Made by a program: the position numbers and the translations under genes
In this document: positions 315 through 49,855 of the stretch, in pieces
Position numbering within the stretch: the stretch's first letter is position 1
Layout: every line of letters starts with the position of its first letter
Source of the DNA: Candidatus Berkelbacteria bacterium
GTDB taxonomy: Bacteria; Patescibacteriota; UBA1384; 2-12-FULL-50-11
Assembly: GCA_030650195.1 (NCBI GenBank)
Contig: JAUSEP010000009.1
Span: forward strand, 1 to 52,400
Direction of reading: 5' to 3'
Length of the DNA: 52,400 bases
Notes under the pieces: model-generated
The model's input: only the letters and a program-made list of their open reading frames with translations
Told to the model about the DNA's origin: nothing
Databases searched by the model: none

Positions 315-698
315 TGGTGGAGCTGCCGAGGATCGAACTCGGGTCCGAAAACTAACGACCAAAGTGTCTACAAGCTTAGTTTGTTTTATTTTTCTTGAAA
401 ATACAGCTCTAAACAGACAAAACACTGTATTTTCCAGCATCAATTCTTAGTGTCTAAACGATGCCTCTTAGACAAGCATCCGATAATATGGCGCAACAAG
501 TCTCCATCGGAGTTAAGGCTTGTTACGGCTCTCGGGTTTAGGCGAGGGCTAAGACCGGGCTAAAGCTAAACGCGTTAGCTAAAGTAGCTTTAGCACGACT
601 TAATACGTTTGCACGTAATTGTTGTTACCAATTAGGCAGATAACTTTCCGCTTGCGTACTTTGGTTGTAAATGTTCCCGTCGAAGCCAATTCAGCCCC
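315..698 (-). ncRNA. ssrA: tmRNA (transfer-messenger RNA), one-piece
   Basis: 5' end is GGGGCTGAATTGGCTTCGACGGGAAC (698 downward). 3' end is GAGTTCGATCCTCGGCAGCTCCACCA (ending at 315). The acceptor stem GGGGCTG/CAGCTCC has a G3:U70 pair. The candidate tag frame 612-538 ends ...PVLALA-TAA. Confidence 0.93.
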
Positions 699-1176: not shown

Positions 1177-1848
1177 ATGCTTCATCTCAAGAACGCTAGA
1201 AAACGCTTTACGGCCGGAGAAGTGGTTAACGCCCTTGATGGTGTCACTCTAAACATTACTGCAGGTGAGTTTGTCGGTATCATTGGGCCAAGCGGCTGTG
1301 GTAAGTCCACCCTGCTCTACACTTTGGGTCTGTTAGACTCCGTGGATGAGGGTGAGTACTCCATTGACGGAATGAGGGTAGATGAGTTTTCCAGTCGCCA
1401 ACGAGCCCTTTTACGCAACAAAAAGTTTGGATTTGTTTTTCAGTCTTTTAATCTAATTAGTCGTACTACTTCCTTCGACAATGTTTTACTACCCCTTTTA
1501 TATAGTCAAACTCGGGGCGCCGCGACTAAAGTCCAACGTGCGCTTGAGCAAGTTGGGGTTTGGAACAAGCGTCGCAACTGGCCCAATCAAATGAGTGGCG
1601 GTCAACAACAAAGAGTAGCCATCGCCCGAGCCCTCGTTACAGAACCTGAAATAATTTTAGCTGACGAGCCAACCGGTAATCTGGACTCCAAAACTGGTAG
1701 CGAAATTATGGATCTTTTCAAAAAAATTCATGCCAAAGGAACAACCGTTGTAATGGTTACCCACAACCCTGATTTACTTGAGTACGCTACCAGAATAATT
1801 GAGATGCGTGATGGCAAGATAGTAAGCGATAAGAAAGTAAAAAGATAA
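1177..1848 (+). CDS. ABC transporter ATP-binding protein (MacB/LolD-like)
   Basis: Walker [10 protein letters not shown], signature [15 protein letters not shown], Walker [12 protein letters not shown]. Confidence 0.92.
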
Positions 1849-3047
1849 TGAGTATCTTTGAGAATTATAAAACTGCCTTAAAATCTCTCTGGAATAACCG
1901 GCTCCGTAGCTTTCTAACCTTGCTGGGAATTGTGATCGGTGTTTACGCCGTAGTTACATTGCTCGCCGCTGCTCAAGGCGTTCAAAACCAGATAGGAGGT
2001 TTCGTTGAAGATTTTGGACCGAGAACAATTCTGGTGATGCCAGGAGAGTCTGACTCTTCCGGTACACCAAACTTTGCCGCCCAGGCAGCACCTTCAACTC
2101 TCTTGGTTGACGACATCGACTACCTTAAGGCCCATACGACACTTATAGAGAGCGTAATCGACTACGCGGTTTTTATCGGCGGACTTGCAACGCATGGTGA
2201 TAAGAAGCTAACTGGCATGCCAGTTGGTATTACTCCAGGCGCAGAAGAGTTATTCAGCATTAAAATCGTTACTGGACGTAACTTTGAGCAAGCAGATCTC
2301 GACAAGAAGAATCGCTTTATCGTTCTAAGTGAAGCGGCTGCTGATAAACTCGCCGTAAAGGTAGGCGAAACAATGAACATCGGAGTTGATAAGTTTGAGG
2401 TTATTGGCTTATTCAAAATTGATCAGTCGTTGAGTATCAGTTCCGCTCAGGGAGAGATGTTTCTCATTCCCGCTCCAGTTGCCAATGAAATAAATAAATC
2501 TCCTCAAGTAAATCGTATCGTCGTACATTCGAAGACGGTCGAAGATGTAGATAGGGCAATTACCGAAGTCAGAGAAGCGCTCACTACCAAGCACGGCACA
2601 ACAGATTTTACGGTTATGAAACCATCTGAAATCTTAAAAACAGTCGACCAAATCATCAACGTATTGAAATATATGGTTATAGGCATCACTTCCATCTCGC
2701 TATTGGTAGGAGGTATCGGGATCATGAACATCATGCTTGTTACAGTAGCCGAACGAACTCGCGAAATCGGAATTCGCAAAGCAGTTGGTGCAACGGAAGG
2801 TGCAATTCTAACTCAGTTTCTAATAGAATCCGTTCTCTTAACTCTCATTGGGTCATTAATTGGCATAGGATTAGCTGCAATTACCTCATACTTGGCAGCT
2901 AAATTCTCACCTTTGGAACCAGCAATTACTGGCACGACCATTATGATGGCCGTTGGTATGGGTGTCGTCGCTGGAGTGATATTTGGTCTTCTACCTGCTG
3001 TCCGCGCCGCACGCAAGAACCCAGTAACTGCACTCAAGTACGAGTAA
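1848..3047 (+). CDS. ABC transporter permease, FtsX/MacB family
   Basis: It has an N-terminal TM helix, a large extracytoplasmic domain and a C-terminal FtsX-type TM bundle. Its start overlaps the stop of the ATPase gene (ATAATG). Confidence 0.88.
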   Translation: MSIFENYKTALKSLWNNRLRSFLTLLGIVIGVYAVVTLLAAAQGVQNQIGGFVEDFGPRTILVMPGESDSSGTPNFAAQAAPSTLLVDDIDYLKAHTTLIESVIDYAVFIGGLATHGDKKLTGMPVGITPGAEELFSIKIVTGRNFEQADLDKKNRFIVLSEAAADKLAVKVGETMNIGVDKFEVIGLFKIDQSLSISSAQGEMFLIPAPVANEINKSPQVNRIVVHSKTVEDVDRAITEVREALTTKHGTTDFTVMKPSEILKTVDQIINVLKYMVIGITSISLLVGGIGIMNIMLVTVAERTREIGIRKAVGATEGAILTQFLIESVLLTLIGSLIGIGLAAITSYLAAKFSPLEPAITGTTIMMAVGMGVVAGVIFGLLPAVRAARKNPVTALKYE

Positions 3048-3054
3048 AATTACA

Positions 3055-3082
3055 TTGACCCGTAAGCGAAAAGCCATATAAT
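3055..3082 (+). promoter_or_regulatory. hicB promoter, TTGACC-16-TATAAT, leaderless geometry
   Basis: TTGACC at 3055-3060 and TATAAT at 3077-3082. The hicB ATG at 3090 lies only 7 nt after the -10 box. Confidence 0.6.
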
Positions 3083-3089
3083 TGAACTG

Positions 3090-3308
3090 ATGAAAAGTTT
3101 TCGTCACGAATTTACAGCGGTTTTTGAACGAGCACCGGAAGGTGGCTACGCTGTTTATATACCCTCGCTGCCTGGCTGTATCTCCGAAGGCGATACGCTC
3201 GAACAAGCTGAAGAGAATATCCGTGAAGCGGCCGAACTCTACTTAGAAGAAACTCCCCACACCGTCGTCAAAAAAACCGACGCTTTTACTCTGCCGGTCA
3301 GAATATAG
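3090..3308 (+). CDS. hicB: HicB-like antitoxin (UPF0150 fold only, no DNA-binding extension)
   Basis: FTAVFERAPEGGYAVYIPSLPGCISEGDTLEQAEENIREA is typical of the HicB N-terminal domain, and a HicA gene follows 3 nt downstream. Confidence 0.8.
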   Translation: MKSFRHEFTAVFERAPEGGYAVYIPSLPGCISEGDTLEQAEENIREAAELYLEETPHTVVKKTDAFTLPVRI

Positions 3309-3311
3309 CTT

Positions 3312-3536
3312 ATGACGGACTTACCGTCGCTCAAGCCAAAGGTAGTCGCGAGAGCTCTGGAGAAGTCTGGATTCGTTTTTGTTCGTCAGAAAGGTAGTCA
3401 TCGACTTTACCGCCGTGGCGATTACTCAACAACCGTGCCAATTCATAAGAAAGACTTAAAGATGCCGACACTTCGAGCAATTATCTCCCAAGCCGGTTTC
3501 ACGGCTAAAGAGTTTATTGGATTGCTAAAAGACTAG
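3312..3536 (+). CDS. hicA: HicA-family mRNA interferase toxin
   Basis: The YcfA/HicA signature is present: ...LEKSGFVFVRQKGSHRLYRR...VPIHKKDLKMPTLRAIISQAG. Confidence 0.85.
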   Translation: MTDLPSLKPKVVARALEKSGFVFVRQKGSHRLYRRGDYSTTVPIHKKDLKMPTLRAIISQAGFTAKEFIGLLKD

Positions 3537-3555
3537 CTTTTTGCACAAAAATACC

Positions 3556-3584
3556 TTGACCCAATGTAAAGTTTCCTTTACATT
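3556..3584 (+). promoter_or_regulatory. Promoter TTGACC-17-TACATT with a perfect 9-4-9 palindromic operator
   Basis: TTGACC at 3556-3561. AATGTAAAG (3563-3571), tttc, CTTTACATT (3576-3584) form the palindrome, and its right arm contains the -10 box. The ATG at 3593 lies 8 nt after the -10 box. Confidence 0.6.
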
Positions 3585-3592
3585 ATGGGTAA

Positions 3593-4294
3593 ATGTCAGC
3601 GGAATTACGATTACTCTTAAGGGATCTACGCCAAGCACAAGATCTAAGCCAAGACGAGCTAGCTCGTCAACTTGGTATCTCTCGCCAATCTATCATTTCC
3701 TTAGAACAAGGTGCTTACTTACCAAGCTTTCCGCTACTTATTAATATGATTCACTTCTTCAACTGCTCTTTAGAAGAGCTAGTTGAGGGAGCGCCTAAGT
3801 TAATCCAACAAGAAAATAACCAAAATATTGAGGAAGGAGGTGAGCAAGATATGCAGATAGCACGATGGGATCCTTTTCAAGCAATCGATAAAATGCACGA
3901 CGAAATGGGAGATGTAGTTGAAAGAACATTTGGTCGTGTCGACTGGCCACGAGCTCTCGGTACTACTGCCGGTGCAATGAATATCCACGAAACCGACAAG
4001 GAATATGAAATTCAAGTTCAGGTTCCAGGATATAAAGAAGATGAAATTAATCTAGAATTCTCTGATGACACCCTAACTATTTCCGGAGAGAAGAAAGTTG
4101 AAGAGCAAGAAGAAAAAAAGAATACAATTCGCCGAGAGTGGACTCATGCTAGTTTCTCTCGTCAGGTGCGCTTTGCTCAACCAATAAAGGACGAGAAAGT
4201 TGAAGCCAAGCTCTCAGACGGAACACTAACAATTACCGCTCCGAAAGTGGAGCCGGTAAAACCAAAGATCAAGAAGATTGAAGTGAAGAAGTAG
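3593..4294 (+). CDS. XRE-family HTH domain fused in frame to an Hsp20/alpha-crystallin small heat-shock domain
   Basis: N-terminus: LSQDELARQLGISRQSIISLEQG (HTH_XRE). C-terminus: WDPF...MNIHETDKEYEIQVQVPGYKEDEINLEFSDDTLTISGEKK...SFSRQVRFAQPI...AKLSDGTLTITAPK (alpha-crystallin domain). No stop codon separates the two domains. Confidence 0.85.
   Translation: MSAELRLLLRDLRQAQDLSQDELARQLGISRQSIISLEQGAYLPSFPLLINMIHFFNCSLEELVEGAPKLIQQENNQNIEEGGEQDMQIARWDPFQAIDKMHDEMGDVVERTFGRVDWPRALGTTAGAMNIHETDKEYEIQVQVPGYKEDEINLEFSDDTLTISGEKKVEEQEEKKNTIRREWTHASFSRQVRFAQPIKDEKVEAKLSDGTLTITAPKVEPVKPKIKKIEVKK
3836..3853 (+). promoter_or_regulatory. Internal Shine-Dalgarno GGAGGTG plus in-frame ATG (codon 87) at the linker/sHSP boundary
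   Basis: GGAGGTG at 3836-3842, an 8-nt spacer, then ATG at 3851 in the same frame as the 3593 start (MQIARWDPF...). Confidence 0.5.
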
Positions 4295-4295
4295 G

Positions 4296-4333
4296 ACGAC
4301 AGCGGATACGGAGGAAAAAAGCCGTATCGTCGT
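4296..4333 (+). terminator. Hairpin terminator after the HTH-Hsp20 gene
   Basis: ACGAC(agcg)GATACGG-aggaaaaaag-CCGTATCGTCGT, then TATT, directly after the stop codon. Confidence 0.55.
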
Positions 4334-4359
4334 TATTCACATATGTGTAAAGTTAAGTT

Positions 4360-6003
4360 ATGAGATTTTTTGGGCATGGCACTGAAAACAACCCCTCACC
4401 ACAGGAAGCGGATGTCGTTGAGGCTCCTCCCCAAAACGGAAATGGGTATGAAAAACGTCTTCTGGATGGTGAATACCTAGGTATTCTTGAAAGCTACGCC
4501 GTGTCCTGGGACATGGAAAAAGCCGGACGGGACGTTTGGCAGAACTTCTTTGATGCTGCTGGCGGTACCGTTGACGGAGTTCGTTATCAAGTAGCCGAGG
4601 AAGGTGAAGATGAGAATAAACAGTACATAATCACTGTCGAAGGCGATGCCGAGTATGACTACCGAAAACTTCTTCATATCGGCGGCACAAGCAAAGAAGA
4701 CAACTCAACGGCCGGGGGTTTCGGTGAAGGCTCGAAAATTCTTTCTCTCGTGCTTTTGCGCGACCAGGGCTTTACAGATGTGAAGTTTGGATCGAGTGAC
4801 TGGCAGGTTGACTTCTCTCTTCGGGAAGTACCAGAAGGTGTTTATGATAAACCAATTCGGGGTCTTACCGCCCAACTTGCAAAAGGCGAGAAGAGGCCCG
4901 GTAACTTCGTACAGCTAACAACAAATGACCCAGAGAAAGCCCAAGCAATAATAGCCGCACGAGAGCTGTTCTATTCATCTGAAAATCCTGATTTTCAAGA
5001 TTCAACCATCGATTTTCGCTCTGAGGAAGGTGGCGGAGGATTTAAATTTCTCGGTTTGAATGACTATGGCCAGTTAAACAAAGGTCATCTGTATGATGCT
5101 GGGCAGAGGCGTCACTACGTCGAAGATGGTAAATGGGAAACTGTTGAAGGTGTCAATATTTGGGGCTGGAGTAAGGTCTTTGGCAAGGACAGAGATCGAG
5201 GTTCTATTTCCCGCCAAGCTCTCGATAGCAATCTGATTGAGCCTCTAATCGCTAGCTTACCTCAAGAGCAAATCATCCATGCCCTGGAAGAGATGGGGCC
5301 AGTCTGGGATAGCGGAAAGTCTTGGAGTCATGAAGTGACTTATAAAATAATGGAGAAAGCGGTGGGGAAGCTGGCAACAGAAGGCGTCCAACTCGATTTC
5401 CCAGATACTCATCTGGCGAGTAGCGCATTCTTGCCAATGTACATTAAGGATGCTTTGAAAGCCCAGGGATATACGATTTGTCACCACTTTTTTGAGAAAA
5501 TAGGCATGAAGGAAGCGGCAGAAAAATTCCGCGAGATGCAAGAGCACCTTAAGACCGAGCCCACACCTGAGCAACAACAGAGAATAGATACCCTAAAACA
5601 AGCCATCGAGCTTTTACAGCAAGCCTTCGAAAGTGGAAAATGGGAGAAAGAAATAACCAGCAAAGAAATCTGGCTTTTCAACAAGAGTAAAGAAAATAGT
5701 ATCGTGCACGGACAATACAACGAAGCTTTTGTTTGGCTTTCTGAGGAACGGTTAACAGGCTCATTCCCCGAGGCATTAGCGACCTACCTTCATGAGATAG
5801 ATCACAAACACGGTAGCGACCAGTCAGCGGAGTTTAGCTATGCTTTGACCGATACACTGAGGGATGTGATTACGGCTCTTCTTAGCGAACAGGAGATGTA
5901 TGTTCAATTCTCTGCGCTACAAAAACGCTGGGAGTCAATACAAATTCCCAAGAGGCCCGACACTACGCCTGACGAAGAAAACGGCAGTAGCCCTGCGGGC
6001 TAG
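4360..6003 (+). CDS. Hypothetical protein: N-terminal GHKL (Hsp90/sacsin/MORC-like) ATPase motifs, C-terminal HExxH motif
   Basis: N-box-like RDVWQNFFDAAGG, G2-box-like GGFGEGSKILS, and C-terminal YLHEIDHKHG (HExxH). No signal peptide or TM segment. Confidence 0.5.
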   Translation: MRFFGHGTENNPSPQEADVVEAPPQNGNGYEKRLLDGEYLGILESYAVSWDMEKAGRDVWQNFFDAAGGTVDGVRYQVAEEGEDENKQYIITVEGDAEYDYRKLLHIGGTSKEDNSTAGGFGEGSKILSLVLLRDQGFTDVKFGSSDWQVDFSLREVPEGVYDKPIRGLTAQLAKGEKRPGNFVQLTTNDPEKAQAIIAARELFYSSENPDFQDSTIDFRSEEGGGGFKFLGLNDYGQLNKGHLYDAGQRRHYVEDGKWETVEGVNIWGWSKVFGKDRDRGSISRQALDSNLIEPLIASLPQEQIIHALEEMGPVWDSGKSWSHEVTYKIMEKAVGKLATEGVQLDFPDTHLASSAFLPMYIKDALKAQGYTICHHFFEKIGMKEAAEKFREMQEHLKTEPTPEQQQRIDTLKQAIELLQQAFESGKWEKEITSKEIWLFNKSKENSIVHGQYNEAFVWLSEERLTGSFPEALATYLHEIDHKHGSDQSAEFSYALTDTLRDVITALLSEQEMYVQFSALQKRWESIQIPKRPDTTPDEENGSSPAG

Positions 6004-6007
6004 GTAC

Positions 6008-6616
6008 TTACTGAACCGTTATTCCTGAGATCTTATCCCCAACGGCTATTTTATGAACGACATCCAAACCAGAAGTAACTTTTCCAAAGATTGTATAGTT
6101 TTTTGGTAGAGAAGTGTTGTCGGCCAACATTATAAAAAACTGGCTACCGTTAGTGTTTGGACCCGCATTAGCCATCGCTAGGACACCTTCTAAGTATCCT
6201 GTCTTATAGCTTGTGGTATTGGGGTTGAGCTCGTCTTCAAACTTAGCACCATATATTGAGACACCACCAGTACCGTTACCGTTCGGATCTCCACCCTGTA
6301 TTACAAAGCCTGGCTCAACTCGGTGGAAGGTAAGGCTATCGTAATAACCGTTCTTAGCAAGGGTTGCAAAATTCATAACTGTTTTTGGCGCATCGTTAGG
6401 ATATAACTCAAGAGAGATATCTCCTTTATCTGTTTTTATTACAGCTGAAGTGGCACTAACTTTTTCAAATGTCGTTGGATCTGTACTCATGGTTTTTGTC
6501 TCCTTTGTAGGGCTAGTTGTATTAGTAACTTTGTCTATAGTTTTACTTTGAGGAACGAAATAGAAAATCCCAATAATAATCGCTGCGAAAACTGCTAAAT
6601 ATCTAATATTTTTCAT
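6008..6616 (-). CDS. ppiB: Peptidyl-prolyl cis-trans isomerase, cyclophilin type, membrane-anchored
   Basis: [22 protein letters not shown] and GSQFFIM motifs, with an N-terminal TM helix ([15 protein letters not shown]). Confidence 0.9.
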
Positions 6617-7638: not shown

Positions 7639-7712
7639 GGTCCCATCGTCTAGTGGCCTAGGACGTCGCCTTTTCATGGCGAAGATCGCGGGTTCGACTC
7701 CCGCTGGGACCG
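7639..7712 (+). tRNA. tRNA-Glu (UUC)
   Basis: GGTCCCA/TGGGACC acceptor stem, anticodon loop TTTTCAT, T arm GCGGG-TTCGACT-CCCGC. Confidence 0.92.
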
Positions 7713-8520: not shown

Positions 8521-8916
8521 CTAGCCGCTTTCGTGTTGGGTTATGGCTTCTTCCATCTCGGCTTCTGCTTCGTGGATTTTTTCTAGAGTCAGGCGCAGAG
8601 GCAGAGGAAGCTGTCGCTCGTATTCAAGCTGCGCCAACTTAGAACGGGCTTGTTTGATCAGCTCAGTAAGAGCCTCTCTTTCGCCGACTACCTCCGCTCG
8701 AAGAAGCTGGGCTTCCAAGCTAGCGATGCGTTCCCCAAGAATTTTGGTCCTTAGGTCACTGCGAACATCAAGCTCGGTTGCACGCTCTTGCTCTTTCTGT
8801 TTGCCTTTGTGGCGGACTAGAAGCCAGGAAACCGCCCCTAGGGCAGCTAAGCCAGCCCCAATACCCCACAATGCTTTTGTATTGAGCAACTTGGTTTCCA
8901 TCTCTTTCTTACTCAA
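8521..8916 (-). CDS. Hypothetical membrane-anchored coiled-coil protein
   Basis: TTG start at 8916, preceded by GAGGAGGTG with a 5-nt spacer. It has one TM helix (ALWGIGAGLAALGAVSWLLV) followed by heptad-like Glu/Leu/Arg-rich sequence. The 10-bp hairpin 8505-8529 overlaps its stop. Confidence 0.6.
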   Translation of the reverse strand: MSKKEMETKLLNTKALWGIGAGLAALGAVSWLLVRHKGKQKEQERATELDVRSDLRTKILGERIASLEAQLLRAEVVGEREALTELIKQARSKLAQLEYERQLPLPLRLTLEKIHEAEAEMEEAITQHESG

Positions 8917-45195: not shown

Positions 45196-45279
45196 TGCCC
45201 AGGAGAGGACTTGAACCTCCACGGACTTTCGTCCACATCCACCTCAAGGATGCGCGGATACCAATTTCGCCACCTGGGC
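45196..45279 (-). tRNA. tRNA-Leu (GAG)
   Basis: GCCCAGG/CCTGGGC acceptor stem, anticodon loop TTGAGGT, long variable arm, T arm GGAGG-TTCAAGT-CCTCT. Confidence 0.9.
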
Positions 45280-45282
45280 TTG

Positions 45283-45365
45283 TGCCTGGAAGAGGACTTG
45301 AACCTCCAAGGGGTTACCCCCACACGAACCTGAATCGTGCGCGTCTGCCATTTCGCCACCCAGGC
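45283..45365 (-). tRNA. tRNA-Leu (CAG)
   Basis: GCCTGGG/TCCAGGC acceptor stem, anticodon loop TTCAGGT, long variable arm. It lies 3 nt from the other tRNA-Leu. Confidence 0.9.
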
Positions 45366-46971: not shown

Positions 46972-47038
46972 GTAGGGGATATGCTAACGAGAAACTGGGC
47001 TGGAGTCAACCCAAAAATACATTTTTCGAGGCCAGAAG

Positions 47039-47109
47039 GGGAATCGGACCCCTGTACGCGGTTTTGCAGACCGCTCCCTAACCACTCGGGCATCTGGCCG
47101 AACGTCTGT
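47039..47109 (-). tRNA. tRNA-Cys (GCA)
   Basis: GGCCAGA/TCTGGCC acceptor stem, discriminator U73, anticodon loop CTGCAAA. The T arm AGGGG-TCCGATT-CCCCT has C at position 55. Confidence 0.8.
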
Positions 47110-47169
47110 ATTTTACCTGTAATCGAGAGCTTTTTCTATGAATTAGGGGGAAAAATTTGAGCGGCAGAC

Positions 47170-47241
47170 CGGATTCGGACCGGCGACCTCTTCGTTGGCA
47201 ACGAAGCATTCTACCACTGAACTACTGCCGCAACTCTAGAT
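47170..47241 (-). tRNA. tRNA-Gly (GCC)
   Basis: GCGGCAG/CTGCCGC acceptor stem, anticodon loop TTGCCAA. The T arm GCCGG-TCCGAAT-CCGGT has C at position 55. Confidence 0.85.
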
Positions 47242-49132: not shown

Positions 49133-49855
49133 ATGTTAGTTATCCGTAACTTGACCAAACAATTTTACCAGAGAAACGAGGAGATTACTGTCGTTGACAA
49201 TCTGTCTCTGACGGTCAAAAAGGGTCAAGTGTTTGGTTTAATCGGCCCTAACGGTGCAGGAAAAACAACCACTGTTAAGCTAGTTGCTGGTTTACTATTC
49301 CCCGGTAAGGGAAAGATATCTATCGGGGGGTTTCCGGCAGGAACGCTTGAAGCCAAACGAAAAATTGGTTTTATGAACGAGAATCCTCAGTTCTACTACC
49401 ACCTAAAAGCCCGTGAAGTTATGGAATTTGTCGCGGATTTATTTGAGATCGAGAAAACAGTTGCTACTAAAAAAATCGATGTTTTATTAAAGGAAGTCGG
49501 CCTTAAGGATGCTAAAGAGCTAGCGGTTCGTAAATTCTCTAAAGGAATGCATCAACGTTTAGCGTTTGCAGTGGCCCAAATTAATAACCCCGAATTACTA
49601 ATTCTGGATGAACCGCTTGATGGACTGGATCCACTCGGAAGATTGGATTTCAAGCAGATGATACTGAAATTAAAAAAATCTGGTGCAACAATATTCTTTT
49701 CTTCGCACATACTCTCCGACGTCGAAGAAATTTGTGACGAAGTAGCCATTTTGCATAAAGGAAAAATTATTGCTCAAGGATCGCCAAAAGATTTAGTTAA
49801 GTCGTCAAAACAATCCTTAGAAGAACTGTTCGTTAGGAGTATTCGCAATGCGTAA
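49133..49855 (+). CDS. ABC transporter ATP-binding protein (ABC-2 type exporter)
   Basis: GPNGAGKTT, FSKGMHQRLAFAVA and LILDEPLDGLD. Confidence 0.9.
   Translation: MLVIRNLTKQFYQRNEEITVVDNLSLTVKKGQVFGLIGPNGAGKTTTVKLVAGLLFPGKGKISIGGFPAGTLEAKRKIGFMNENPQFYYHLKAREVMEFVADLFEIEKTVATKKIDVLLKEVGLKDAKELAVRKFSKGMHQRLAFAVAQINNPELLILDEPLDGLDPLGRLDFKQMILKLKKSGATIFFSSHILSDVEEICDEVAILHKGKIIAQGSPKDLVKSSKQSLEELFVRSIRNA

Follow-up and report, generated by a model that had tools for sequence, protein, structure and literature searches.

The 52,400-nucleotide (nt) stretch of DNA analyzed here, which we call the window and to whose positions all coordinates refer, belongs to contig JAUSEP010000009.1 (GCA_030650195.1) of a Candidatus Berkelbacteria bacterium, and it carries at 3593..4294 on the forward strand an open reading frame (ORF) of 233 amino acids in which an XRE-type helix-turn-helix (HTH) domain, a linker, and a small heat shock protein (sHSP) follow one another with no internal stop codon. 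The HTH domain, of a CylR2-like subtype, occupies 3617..3781 (+; amino acids 9-63), contains the recognition helix ISRQSIISLE, and matches the Pfam profile HTH_3 (PF01381) with an E value of 2e-13 and 50.5 bits against a cutoff of 23. It is followed by a variable Gln/Asn/Glu-rich linker at 3788..3850 (+; amino acids 66-86), which is poorly conserved except for an E-G-G-E motif, and then by the sHSP part (amino acids 87-233), composed of an N-terminal arm (about 87-125), an alpha-crystallin domain (about 126-220), and a C-terminal I-E-V sequence of the I-x-I/V type at 4277..4285 (+; amino acids 229-231), in which I229 and V231 are nearly invariant across the family alignment. The I-x-I/V motif is an anchor in sHSP oligomer assembly. 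The alpha-crystallin (HSP20) profile PF00011 matches amino acids 131-232 (3983..4288, +) with an E value of 3e-21 and 75.8 bits against a cutoff of 20.8, and NCBIfam gives only partial matches, to sHSP and XRE/antitoxin models. A sequence-only reading of the window had described a single 233-residue HTH-sHSP frame without a stop, which the Pfam matches to both domains bear out; it had also called amino acids 87-233 an alpha-crystallin domain, where the extent stands and the label does not, since that segment holds a whole sHSP of arm, domain, and tail.

An AlphaFold2 model of the fusion protein built on 46 homologues contains two confident domains, the HTH (amino acids 6-66; predicted local distance difference test (pLDDT) 80-92) and a beta-sandwich (125-220; pLDDT 85-91). 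The HTH is modeled as five helices (9-15, 20-27, 31-39, 46-56, and 60-63), and about 55 low-confidence residues between the HTH and the sandwich correspond to the linker, where pLDDT falls below 50, and to the sHSP N-terminal arm, in which a helix is predicted at 94-112. The best Foldseek matches in the Protein Data Bank (PDB) are oligomeric sHSPs (SpHsp16.0, wheat Hsp16.9, Xylella HspA, and MjHsp16.5), with a probability of 1.00. The protein thus has the HTH_3 profile and five-helix fold of an XRE regulator together with the alpha-crystallin domain, N-terminal arm, and C-terminal I-x-V of an sHSP, and oligomerization and ATP-independent holdase activity of the fused sHSP are predicted from its family membership.

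The fusion is reproduced in independent data. Run X1, a groundwater metagenome among the Logan assemblies, reproduces 3300-4400 at a depth of about 53 with no differences and no indels, and in related strains from three other runs (groundwater and soil metagenomes) the ORF differs by substitutions only, 30 of the 37 listed substitutions inside it falling on third codon positions. Similarity between these strains and the window starts at 3555, at the -35 box, and in some contigs it ends at 4293, so the conserved unit consists of promoter, operator, and gene, with the upstream HicB/HicA pair outside it. Of the 204 relatives from a first protein search, 120 were listed, and with few exceptions these combine HTH_3 and HSP20 in 200-250 amino acids, the named ones among them coming from Candidatus Berkelbacteria or the "Patescibacteria group." A second search, in which the query was a 37%-identical member from the complete genome CP011213, added 400 relatives with E values up to 1e-10, and the best 120 of these 400 are again nearly all fusions; clustering at 50% identity left about 60 full-length fusion clusters. 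The HTH_3-HSP20 fusion is therefore a conserved family in Candidatus Berkelbacteria and related Patescibacteria, spanning 97% to about 37% protein identity. The databases label it only as "Hsp20 family protein" or "helix-turn-helix domain-containing protein," and the same gene within one 90% cluster is variously called at 222, 240, or 149 amino acids.

We give practically no credence to the alternative that the ORF is an assembly or frameshift artifact joining two adjacent genes. No point in its support was found; the identical, indel-free X1 assembly speaks against it, as does the recurrence of the single-ORF architecture in hundreds of clusters from many samples and assemblers, and as far as assembled data reach, it is refuted. 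Apparent "HSP20-only" entries that were checked turned out to be alternative gene calls on intact fusion ORFs or to span an assembly gap: P0107 corresponds to the C-terminal portion of the fusion ORF in L005, P0101 and P0106 have an intact in-frame HTH and the operator upstream, and the call of P0109 adjoins a run of N, and none of these four was retained as a stand-alone sHSP gene. Two of the checks that the sequence-only reading had proposed, on the reading frame and on the presence of the same fusion in relatives, thus both came out in favor of a genuine fusion.

Upstream of the gene, a promoter scan identifies TTGACC-17-TACATT at 3556-3584 (+), with the -35 box at 3556..3561 and the -10 box, to which relatives' loci also point, at 3579..3584. 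The -10 box lies within the right arm of a perfect 9-4-9 palindrome, AATGTAAAG-tttc-CTTTACATT, at 3563..3584, whose core TGTAAAG-N4-CTTTACA spans 3565-3582. The palindrome occurs once in the window, where no second copy of the operator was found, and shuffled sequence averages 0.03 matches. Among 19 genome loci picked by protein similarity, 17 hold a fusion gene together with its upstream region, and in all 17 the core is perfect, present in a single copy per locus of about 8.6 kb, and located directly upstream of the fusion gene, a conservation that reaches relatives at 37-43% protein identity. Nearly all relatives have a TTGAC -35 box 4-5 nt ahead of the palindrome, and their -10 box, TACATT or TACAAT, is likewise part of the right operator arm. 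With a dimer of the HTH bound there, the spacer and the -10 box would be covered, a repressor-like arrangement. The palindrome, its overlap with the -10 box, the promoter, and its distance of 8 nt from the first ATG had all been proposed from the sequence, and they hold up.

The first ATG (3593) is 8 nt past the -10 box and has no Shine-Dalgarno (SD) sequence before it, and in 20 of 27 family members the distance from -10 box to ATG is 5-11 nt, which suggests that the fusion mRNA is probably leaderless. A second initiation signal lies inside the ORF. The sequence AAGGAGGTG at 3834..3842 (+), encoded by the E-G-G-E codons of the linker, is predicted to pair with the anti-SD at -16.0 kcal/mol; it includes GGAGGTG at 3836-3842, and 8 nt later an in-frame ATG at 3851 (MQIARWDPF) opens an internal ORF (3851..4294, +) for a complete stand-alone sHSP of 147 amino acids. 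This is the strongest SD of the ORF and one of three sites at or below -15 kcal/mol on both strands of the window. In most long-form members of the family, in which the Met is conserved, no other anti-SD site in the gene is as strong as the GGAGGTGA ahead of the in-frame ATG, which reaches -15 to -16 kcal/mol against gene means near -2.5. The linker is variable in the family alignment except for E/K-G-G-E/D-x-x-M, corresponding in the DNA to (A/G)AAGGAGGTGA placed 5-9 nt before the ATG. Relative L016 has the amino acids H-E-E-V-R here, yet it retains GAGGAGGTGAGG with the codon phase shifted, which speaks for RNA-level instead of protein-level selection. Gene callers repeatedly start fusion genes at this ATG (P0101, P0106, P0107, P0109, and P0549). 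The domain boundary therefore bears a conserved internal initiation signal, and the SD and ATG noted at these positions in the sequence-only reading prove to be conserved at the nucleotide level in the long forms. From this arrangement we infer two products of one mRNA, a full-length repressor made from the leaderless ATG and a free 147-residue sHSP made from the SD-led ATG.

The internal SD is absent only in a short-form subfamily (L010-L013; about 201-220 amino acids), whose members have neither the sHSP N-terminal arm nor the internal SD and ATG. Compared with the window (3788-3965), these forms differ by about 32 codons that were recently deleted or inserted, a change that does away with the predicted second isoform. 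The HTH and promoter of L010-L013 are nearly identical to those of the window, and the promoter region of L010 matches base for base. An RNA thermometer masking the internal SD was considered and rejected, since the region is unstructured and the relatives have no common hairpin; RNA from 3800-3900 is less structured than its shuffles (z +1.46, with 191 of 200 shuffles folding at least as well). A search of 3400-4450 gave no Rfam match even at E values up to 1.

It is conceivable, and in our estimation unlikely, that only the full-length protein is made and that the internal SD and ATG are a relic of the ribosome-binding site of an ancestral sHSP gene, or a pause site. The organism hardly uses SDs (none of 42 long ORFs), and E-G-G-E could be conserved as protein. 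Against this reading, the signal persists over the whole range from 97% to about 37% protein identity, L016 keeps it in another codon phase with different amino acids, the SD-ATG spacing is held at 5-9 nt, the loss coincides exactly with the loss of the sHSP arm, and the surrounding RNA is less structured than shuffled controls. Another window gene also starts after GGAGGTGA, a 131-amino acid gene at 8521..8916 (-) whose TTG start follows a true SD that is among the three strongest sites of the window, and the chaperone genes of relatives have AAGGAG. Two-isoform genes with an internal in-frame start are familiar from E. coli clpB, with its long and short forms, and infB. As in those genes, internal initiation would take place on one mRNA, and the shorter form would lack the N-terminal domain and could co-assemble with the longer one; unlike them, the fusion gene would use two modes of initiation, leaderless and SD-led, and the domain that is dropped is the DNA-binding one, so that the isoforms would differ in their job, regulator in one case and chaperone in the other.

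The same promoter-operator arrangement is found ahead of chaperone genes. Metagenome contigs were scanned with the pattern TTGAC-N4,5-TGTAAAG-N4-CTTTACA, giving at least 120 stretches, from which 122 listed instances were classified. The gene behind the promoter and operator is dnaK in 18 of these (all different sequences), groES in 7 (with groEL next in all four loci that have enough sequence), and grpE in 5; fusion genes account for 17 complete and at least 3 truncated instances, and at least 21 belong to stand-alone modules with a small XRE, which often include a DUF2178 membrane protein. ParB-like loci make up a further 11, near-identical and from one low-GC lineage, and the remaining instances comprise 27 unclassified ones and 9 at contig ends. 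The chaperone promoters have cTTGACAAAATGTAAAG-N4-CTTTACA(A/T)T in common in the midst of unrelated flanks with a GC content of 0.37 to 0.53, and two dnaK contigs bear a second operator ahead of a J-domain gene. The window and 210 kb of chaperone loci were free of CIRCE-like sites (up to three mismatches) and of HAIR-like sites (up to two mismatches). The ParB-like loci (L024, L025, L027, L034, L058, L071, L076, L092, L108, L113, and L116) carry a 252-amino acid ParB-N-domain gene with the operator pattern 29 nt upstream; their eleven contigs have a GC content of 0.33-0.38 and represent one lineage, the pattern there may reflect chance or regulation by a CylR2-like protein, and they are probably unrelated to the fusion-sHSP system.

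Several observations place these chaperone loci in the same organisms as the fusion. The GroES of operator-bearing L072 is identical to that of several named Berkelbacteria metagenome-assembled genomes (MAGs), the operator-bearing GroES of L052 and GrpE of L062 cluster with Berkelbacteria proteins, and the DnaK of L111 comes from a Patescibacteria MAG. The chromosome OY969116 (929,420 bp) carries both a fusion gene with a perfect operator (L017, P0333) and the GrpE P0492, and the sequence TGTCAAG-tata-CTTTACA stands 33 nt before its dnaK ATG, where about 0.003 such sites would be expected by chance; the 20 kb around grpE-dnaK-dnaJ contain no other site that matches the operator with up to two mismatches. 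Three further contigs, a less biased sample picked by GrpE similarity, contain one perfect operator each; two of these operators precede dnaK, by 81 and 118 nt, and the remaining one is at the end of its contig. In run X1, single contigs with depths of 54.9 and 44.6 span the operator stretch and the dnaK coding sequence (L106), and the contig of the window has a depth of 52.7 in the same run, a match that is suggestive only as a link to the same organism. On OY969116 an 84-amino acid winged-helix gene (HTH_24/MarR-like; L140 12374-12628, -) lies divergently upstream of the operator-bearing dnaK, and it was not seen at the same place in L143 and L145. An inverted-repeat operator overlies the promoters of dnaK, groESL, and the regulator's own gene, and its presence ahead of chaperone genes makes a regulon repressor more likely than an autoregulator alone. 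The fusion protein is probably a previously undescribed heat-shock regulator of dnaK, grpE, groESL, and dnaJ-like genes, as judged from the distribution of its operator. The direct autoregulation of the chaperone that had been envisaged earlier fits the operator before the fusion gene itself and is too narrow, given the further operators at dnaK, grpE, groES-groEL, and dnaJ-like genes.

The nearest solved structure to the HTH domain is that of CylR2 (2xiu/1utx; phmmer against the PDB, E 5e-9), and the alignment pairs amino acids 9-68 of the fusion with 6-65 of the CylR2 chain, including the recognition helix (V/I)SRQ(T/S)I. CylR2 is a 66-amino acid homodimeric repressor that binds the cytolysin promoter of E. 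faecalis (PMC3709268). An enterococcal plasmid contains between cylL-L and cylR2 a perfect palindrome, TTTTGTCAAGTG-T-CACTTGACAAAA, which is a candidate CylR2 site. Its half-site TGTCAAG is one base off TGTAAAG and equals the variant half-site at the dnaK of OY969116; the half-sites are 5 nt apart in the cyl palindrome compared with 4 nt in the fusion operator. The fusion HTH is thus similar to CylR2 across the whole 66-residue domain and likewise associated with a palindrome in a promoter, and a palindrome-binding homodimer is predicted by this likeness. The differences lie in the rest of the molecule and in its targets: CylR2-type proteins have about 66-80 amino acids and no sensor domain, whereas the fusion has 233, and a separate membrane partner, CylR1, takes the place that the fused sHSP has here, where the targets are chaperone genes.

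The cylR2 gene is preceded by the small membrane-protein gene cylR1, and the same pairing is seen in the small XRE plus DUF2178 genes, whose TTGAC-TGTAAAG-N4-CTTTACA operator is identical to that of the fusion gene and which occur in unrelated phyla (Acidobacteria, Blastocatellia, Shapirobacteria, and others; GC content 0.28-0.68; for example L032, L084, L105, L121, and L139 among L022-L139). These loci suggest a two-gene module akin to CylR1/CylR2, widespread and conserved in its operator. The fusion HTH and the operator-linked small XREs have a common recognition-helix motif, SRQSI...E.G.Y.PS, and this likeness, together with the cognate operators, places the fusion HTH in a subfamily with a common DNA specificity, the members of which normally need a separate partner. 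No DUF2178 gene lies beside the fusion gene, whose neighbors are HicA/HicB and a 547-amino acid ORF without a Pfam match.

The existence of such modules raises the possibility, which we consider improbable, that the fusion regulates only its own gene or is a mere member of the regulon, and that a separate CylR2-like XRE, with or without DUF2178, binds the operators at dnaK, grpE, and groES. Modules with the same operator are present in many phyla including Patescibacteria, and just one chromosome was shown to hold both a fusion gene and an operator-bearing dnaK. Set against this, no stand-alone XRE was seen in the Berkelbacteria fusion and chaperone loci examined, the operator is at the fusion gene in every case, the fusion HTH has the recognition-helix motif of the small XREs, and an sHSP suits a dnaK/groESL regulon functionally.

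Taking these lines together, we lean toward the view that the product of the gene is a repressor, a CylR2-like XRE HTH joined to a complete sHSP, that it controls its own gene and a heat-shock regulon, and that it exists in two isoforms. A number of observations weigh against this view. Among RNA sequencing runs, none was found to contain the locus. The scan pattern itself contained TTGAC and part of the -10 box, so that promoter-like sites were selected. The window contains no dnaK, groES, or grpE, no fetched contig was found to hold both a fusion gene and a chaperone gene, and a comparison of NCBI accession blocks gave no match that would place a fusion gene and a chaperone gene in the same MAG. 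A single chromosome provides the direct same-genome link, and its dnaK site deviates by one mismatch and in the spacing of the -35 box. Two DUF2178 proteins linked to the operator come from Patescibacteria, one of them from Shapirobacteria and the other from a 521-kb Patescibacteria contig. Not every family member has the leaderless geometry: the leaders of L014 and L016 are 52-69 nt long. If an anti-SD duplex of -8 kcal/mol or lower is taken to mark an SD, none of the first ATGs of the 42 window ORFs of at least 150 amino acids is preceded by one, no different from random positions. Translation initiation in this organism seems largely SD-independent, as judged from the window sequence, and the weight of SD-led initiation is uncertain where there are almost no SDs. 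Finally, the short forms show that the N-terminal arm and the internal start are not essential to the fused design.

A mechanism can be outlined for such a repressor, with its later steps more speculative than the first. The HTH dimer would bind the palindrome and block RNA polymerase, and its own gene and the chaperone regulon would be repressed. The sHSP part may serve as the sensor, with oligomerization or client binding modulating DNA binding. Co-assembly of the full-length protein with the free sHSP might proceed via the I-x-V tail and alpha-crystallin dimerization, and heat or proteotoxic stress might draw both into sHSP-client assemblies, with the repressor leaving the DNA. The regulon would then be derepressed, and once DnaK/DnaJ/GrpE had cleared the clients, the repressor could be released and the response shut off. 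A stronger form of this proposal, plausible and short of probable, is that heat-shock control in Berkelbacteria and related Patescibacteria has the XRE-sHSP family as its master regulator, in the role of HrcA, HspR, or sigma-32, titrated by clients and with an isoform ratio hard-wired by leaderless versus SD-led initiation.

The sensing step could also be intrinsic. With the same architecture and regulon, a temperature-dependent oligomeric state of the sHSP or stability of the HTH might alter DNA binding with no client titration, an account that as a whole we regard as somewhat unlikely. The thermosensing repressors CtsR and RheA provide precedents, and sHSP oligomers in general rearrange with temperature. 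The short forms, which lack the main client-binding arm, keep the HTH, the alpha-crystallin domain, and the I-x-V tail, as would suit an intrinsic sensor, whereas the conserved co-production of free sHSP in the long forms suggests that stoichiometry with the chaperone pool matters. The C. jejuni HrcA repressor is described as an intrinsic thermosensor (PMC8533110). At the level of the sensing step itself, thermosensing by the oligomer and titration by clients are equally open.

The surroundings of the gene differ between strains. Immediately upstream in the window is a HicB/HicA toxin-antitoxin pair (3090-3308 and 3312-3536), preceded by the near-consensus promoter TTGACC-16-TATAAT (3055-3082; 11 of 12 matches; whole unit 3055-3536); related strains lose similarity exactly at 3555, and the pair is thus a variable insertion beside the conserved unit. 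Further upstream (1177-3047) lies a MacB-type ABC transporter pair of ATPase and FtsX/MacB permease, and a similar pair is directly upstream of the operator-bearing dnaK in L106 (3559-5456), possibly by coincidence. Right behind the stop codon, a stem-loop at 4295..4333 (+; RNAfold -15.0 kcal/mol) may be a terminator, a weak assignment, as it has no T-run and was not called by the terminator scan. The 547-amino acid ORF (4360-6003) separates the fusion gene from a cyclophilin-type peptidyl-prolyl isomerase gene (6008-6616, -), which in the close relatives L146 and L147 is convergent and comes right after the fusion gene. The window also contains a tmRNA gene (140 bits) and five tRNA genes, at 315-698 (-), 7639-7712 (+), 45196-45365 (-), and 47029-47231 (-); several mechanical ORFs at 217-777 that overlap the tmRNA do not count as genes. 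At 49213-49229 (+), GGTCAAAAAGGGTCAAG differs at one position from the CtsR-box direct repeat, but its place within the coding sequence of an ABC ATPase, just ahead of the Walker A motif, led us to judge it a coding coincidence.

The control of stress responses in Candidate Phyla Radiation (CPR) bacteria is essentially unknown because they are uncultured, and a search of 8 million papers and preprints found no account of an HTH-sHSP fusion, of a TGTAAAG-N4-CTTTACA operator, or of CPR heat-shock regulators, in agreement with the earlier remark that no such fusion regulator was known as described. If the proposal is correct, this would be the first transcription factor in which a chaperone itself is the sensor module, a minimal natural design with a chaperone domain wired to a DNA-binding domain, and the long-discussed chaperone-titration model would become testable in one polypeptide. 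The finding defines a concrete, testable regulon of an 18-bp operator, a regulator, and the targets dnaK, grpE, groESL, dnaJ-like genes, and the sHSP gene. In practical terms, the family is annotated by domain names only and is often cut short by gene callers, which begin at the internal start, and the operator could be used to predict heat-shock genes in CPR metagenomes.

The closest parallels in known heat-shock control are the HspR/HAIR and HrcA/CIRCE systems, in which, as here, an inverted-repeat operator overlies sigma-70-type promoters of dnaK, grpE, and groES-groEL, the regulator gene bears this operator too, and feedback passes through a chaperone, as we propose for the fusion. The regulator itself is different: it has an XRE/CylR2-type HTH and is neither MerR-type, as HspR is, nor HrcA, and profile searches with the fusion protein gave only HTH_3-type matches and none to HrcA or HspR. 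Its operator is TGTAAAG-N4-CTTTACA rather than CIRCE or HAIR, and its chaperone is covalently fused instead of acting as a separate co-repressor, and is an ATP-independent sHSP rather than DnaK or GroEL. By analogy with these systems, heat-inducible derepression and chaperone-modulated DNA binding are predicted for the fusion. A second parallel is the E. coli sHSP IbpA, which represses translation of its own mRNA and of sigma-32 (rpoH) and so adds feedback and shut-off (PMC10410725; bioRxiv 10.1101/2020.04.20.050740; PMC10474464). In both cases an sHSP would be the sensing element of negative feedback on heat-shock expression, though IbpA acts post-transcriptionally, binds mRNA, and has no DNA-binding domain, whereas the fusion carries an HTH and its targets would be promoters. 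The general logic, in which chaperone promoters are repressed through an inverted repeat and a chaperone provides the feedback, is thus already known; what is new is the regulator family, its operator, the covalent fusion of chaperone and repressor, and the two-isoform design.

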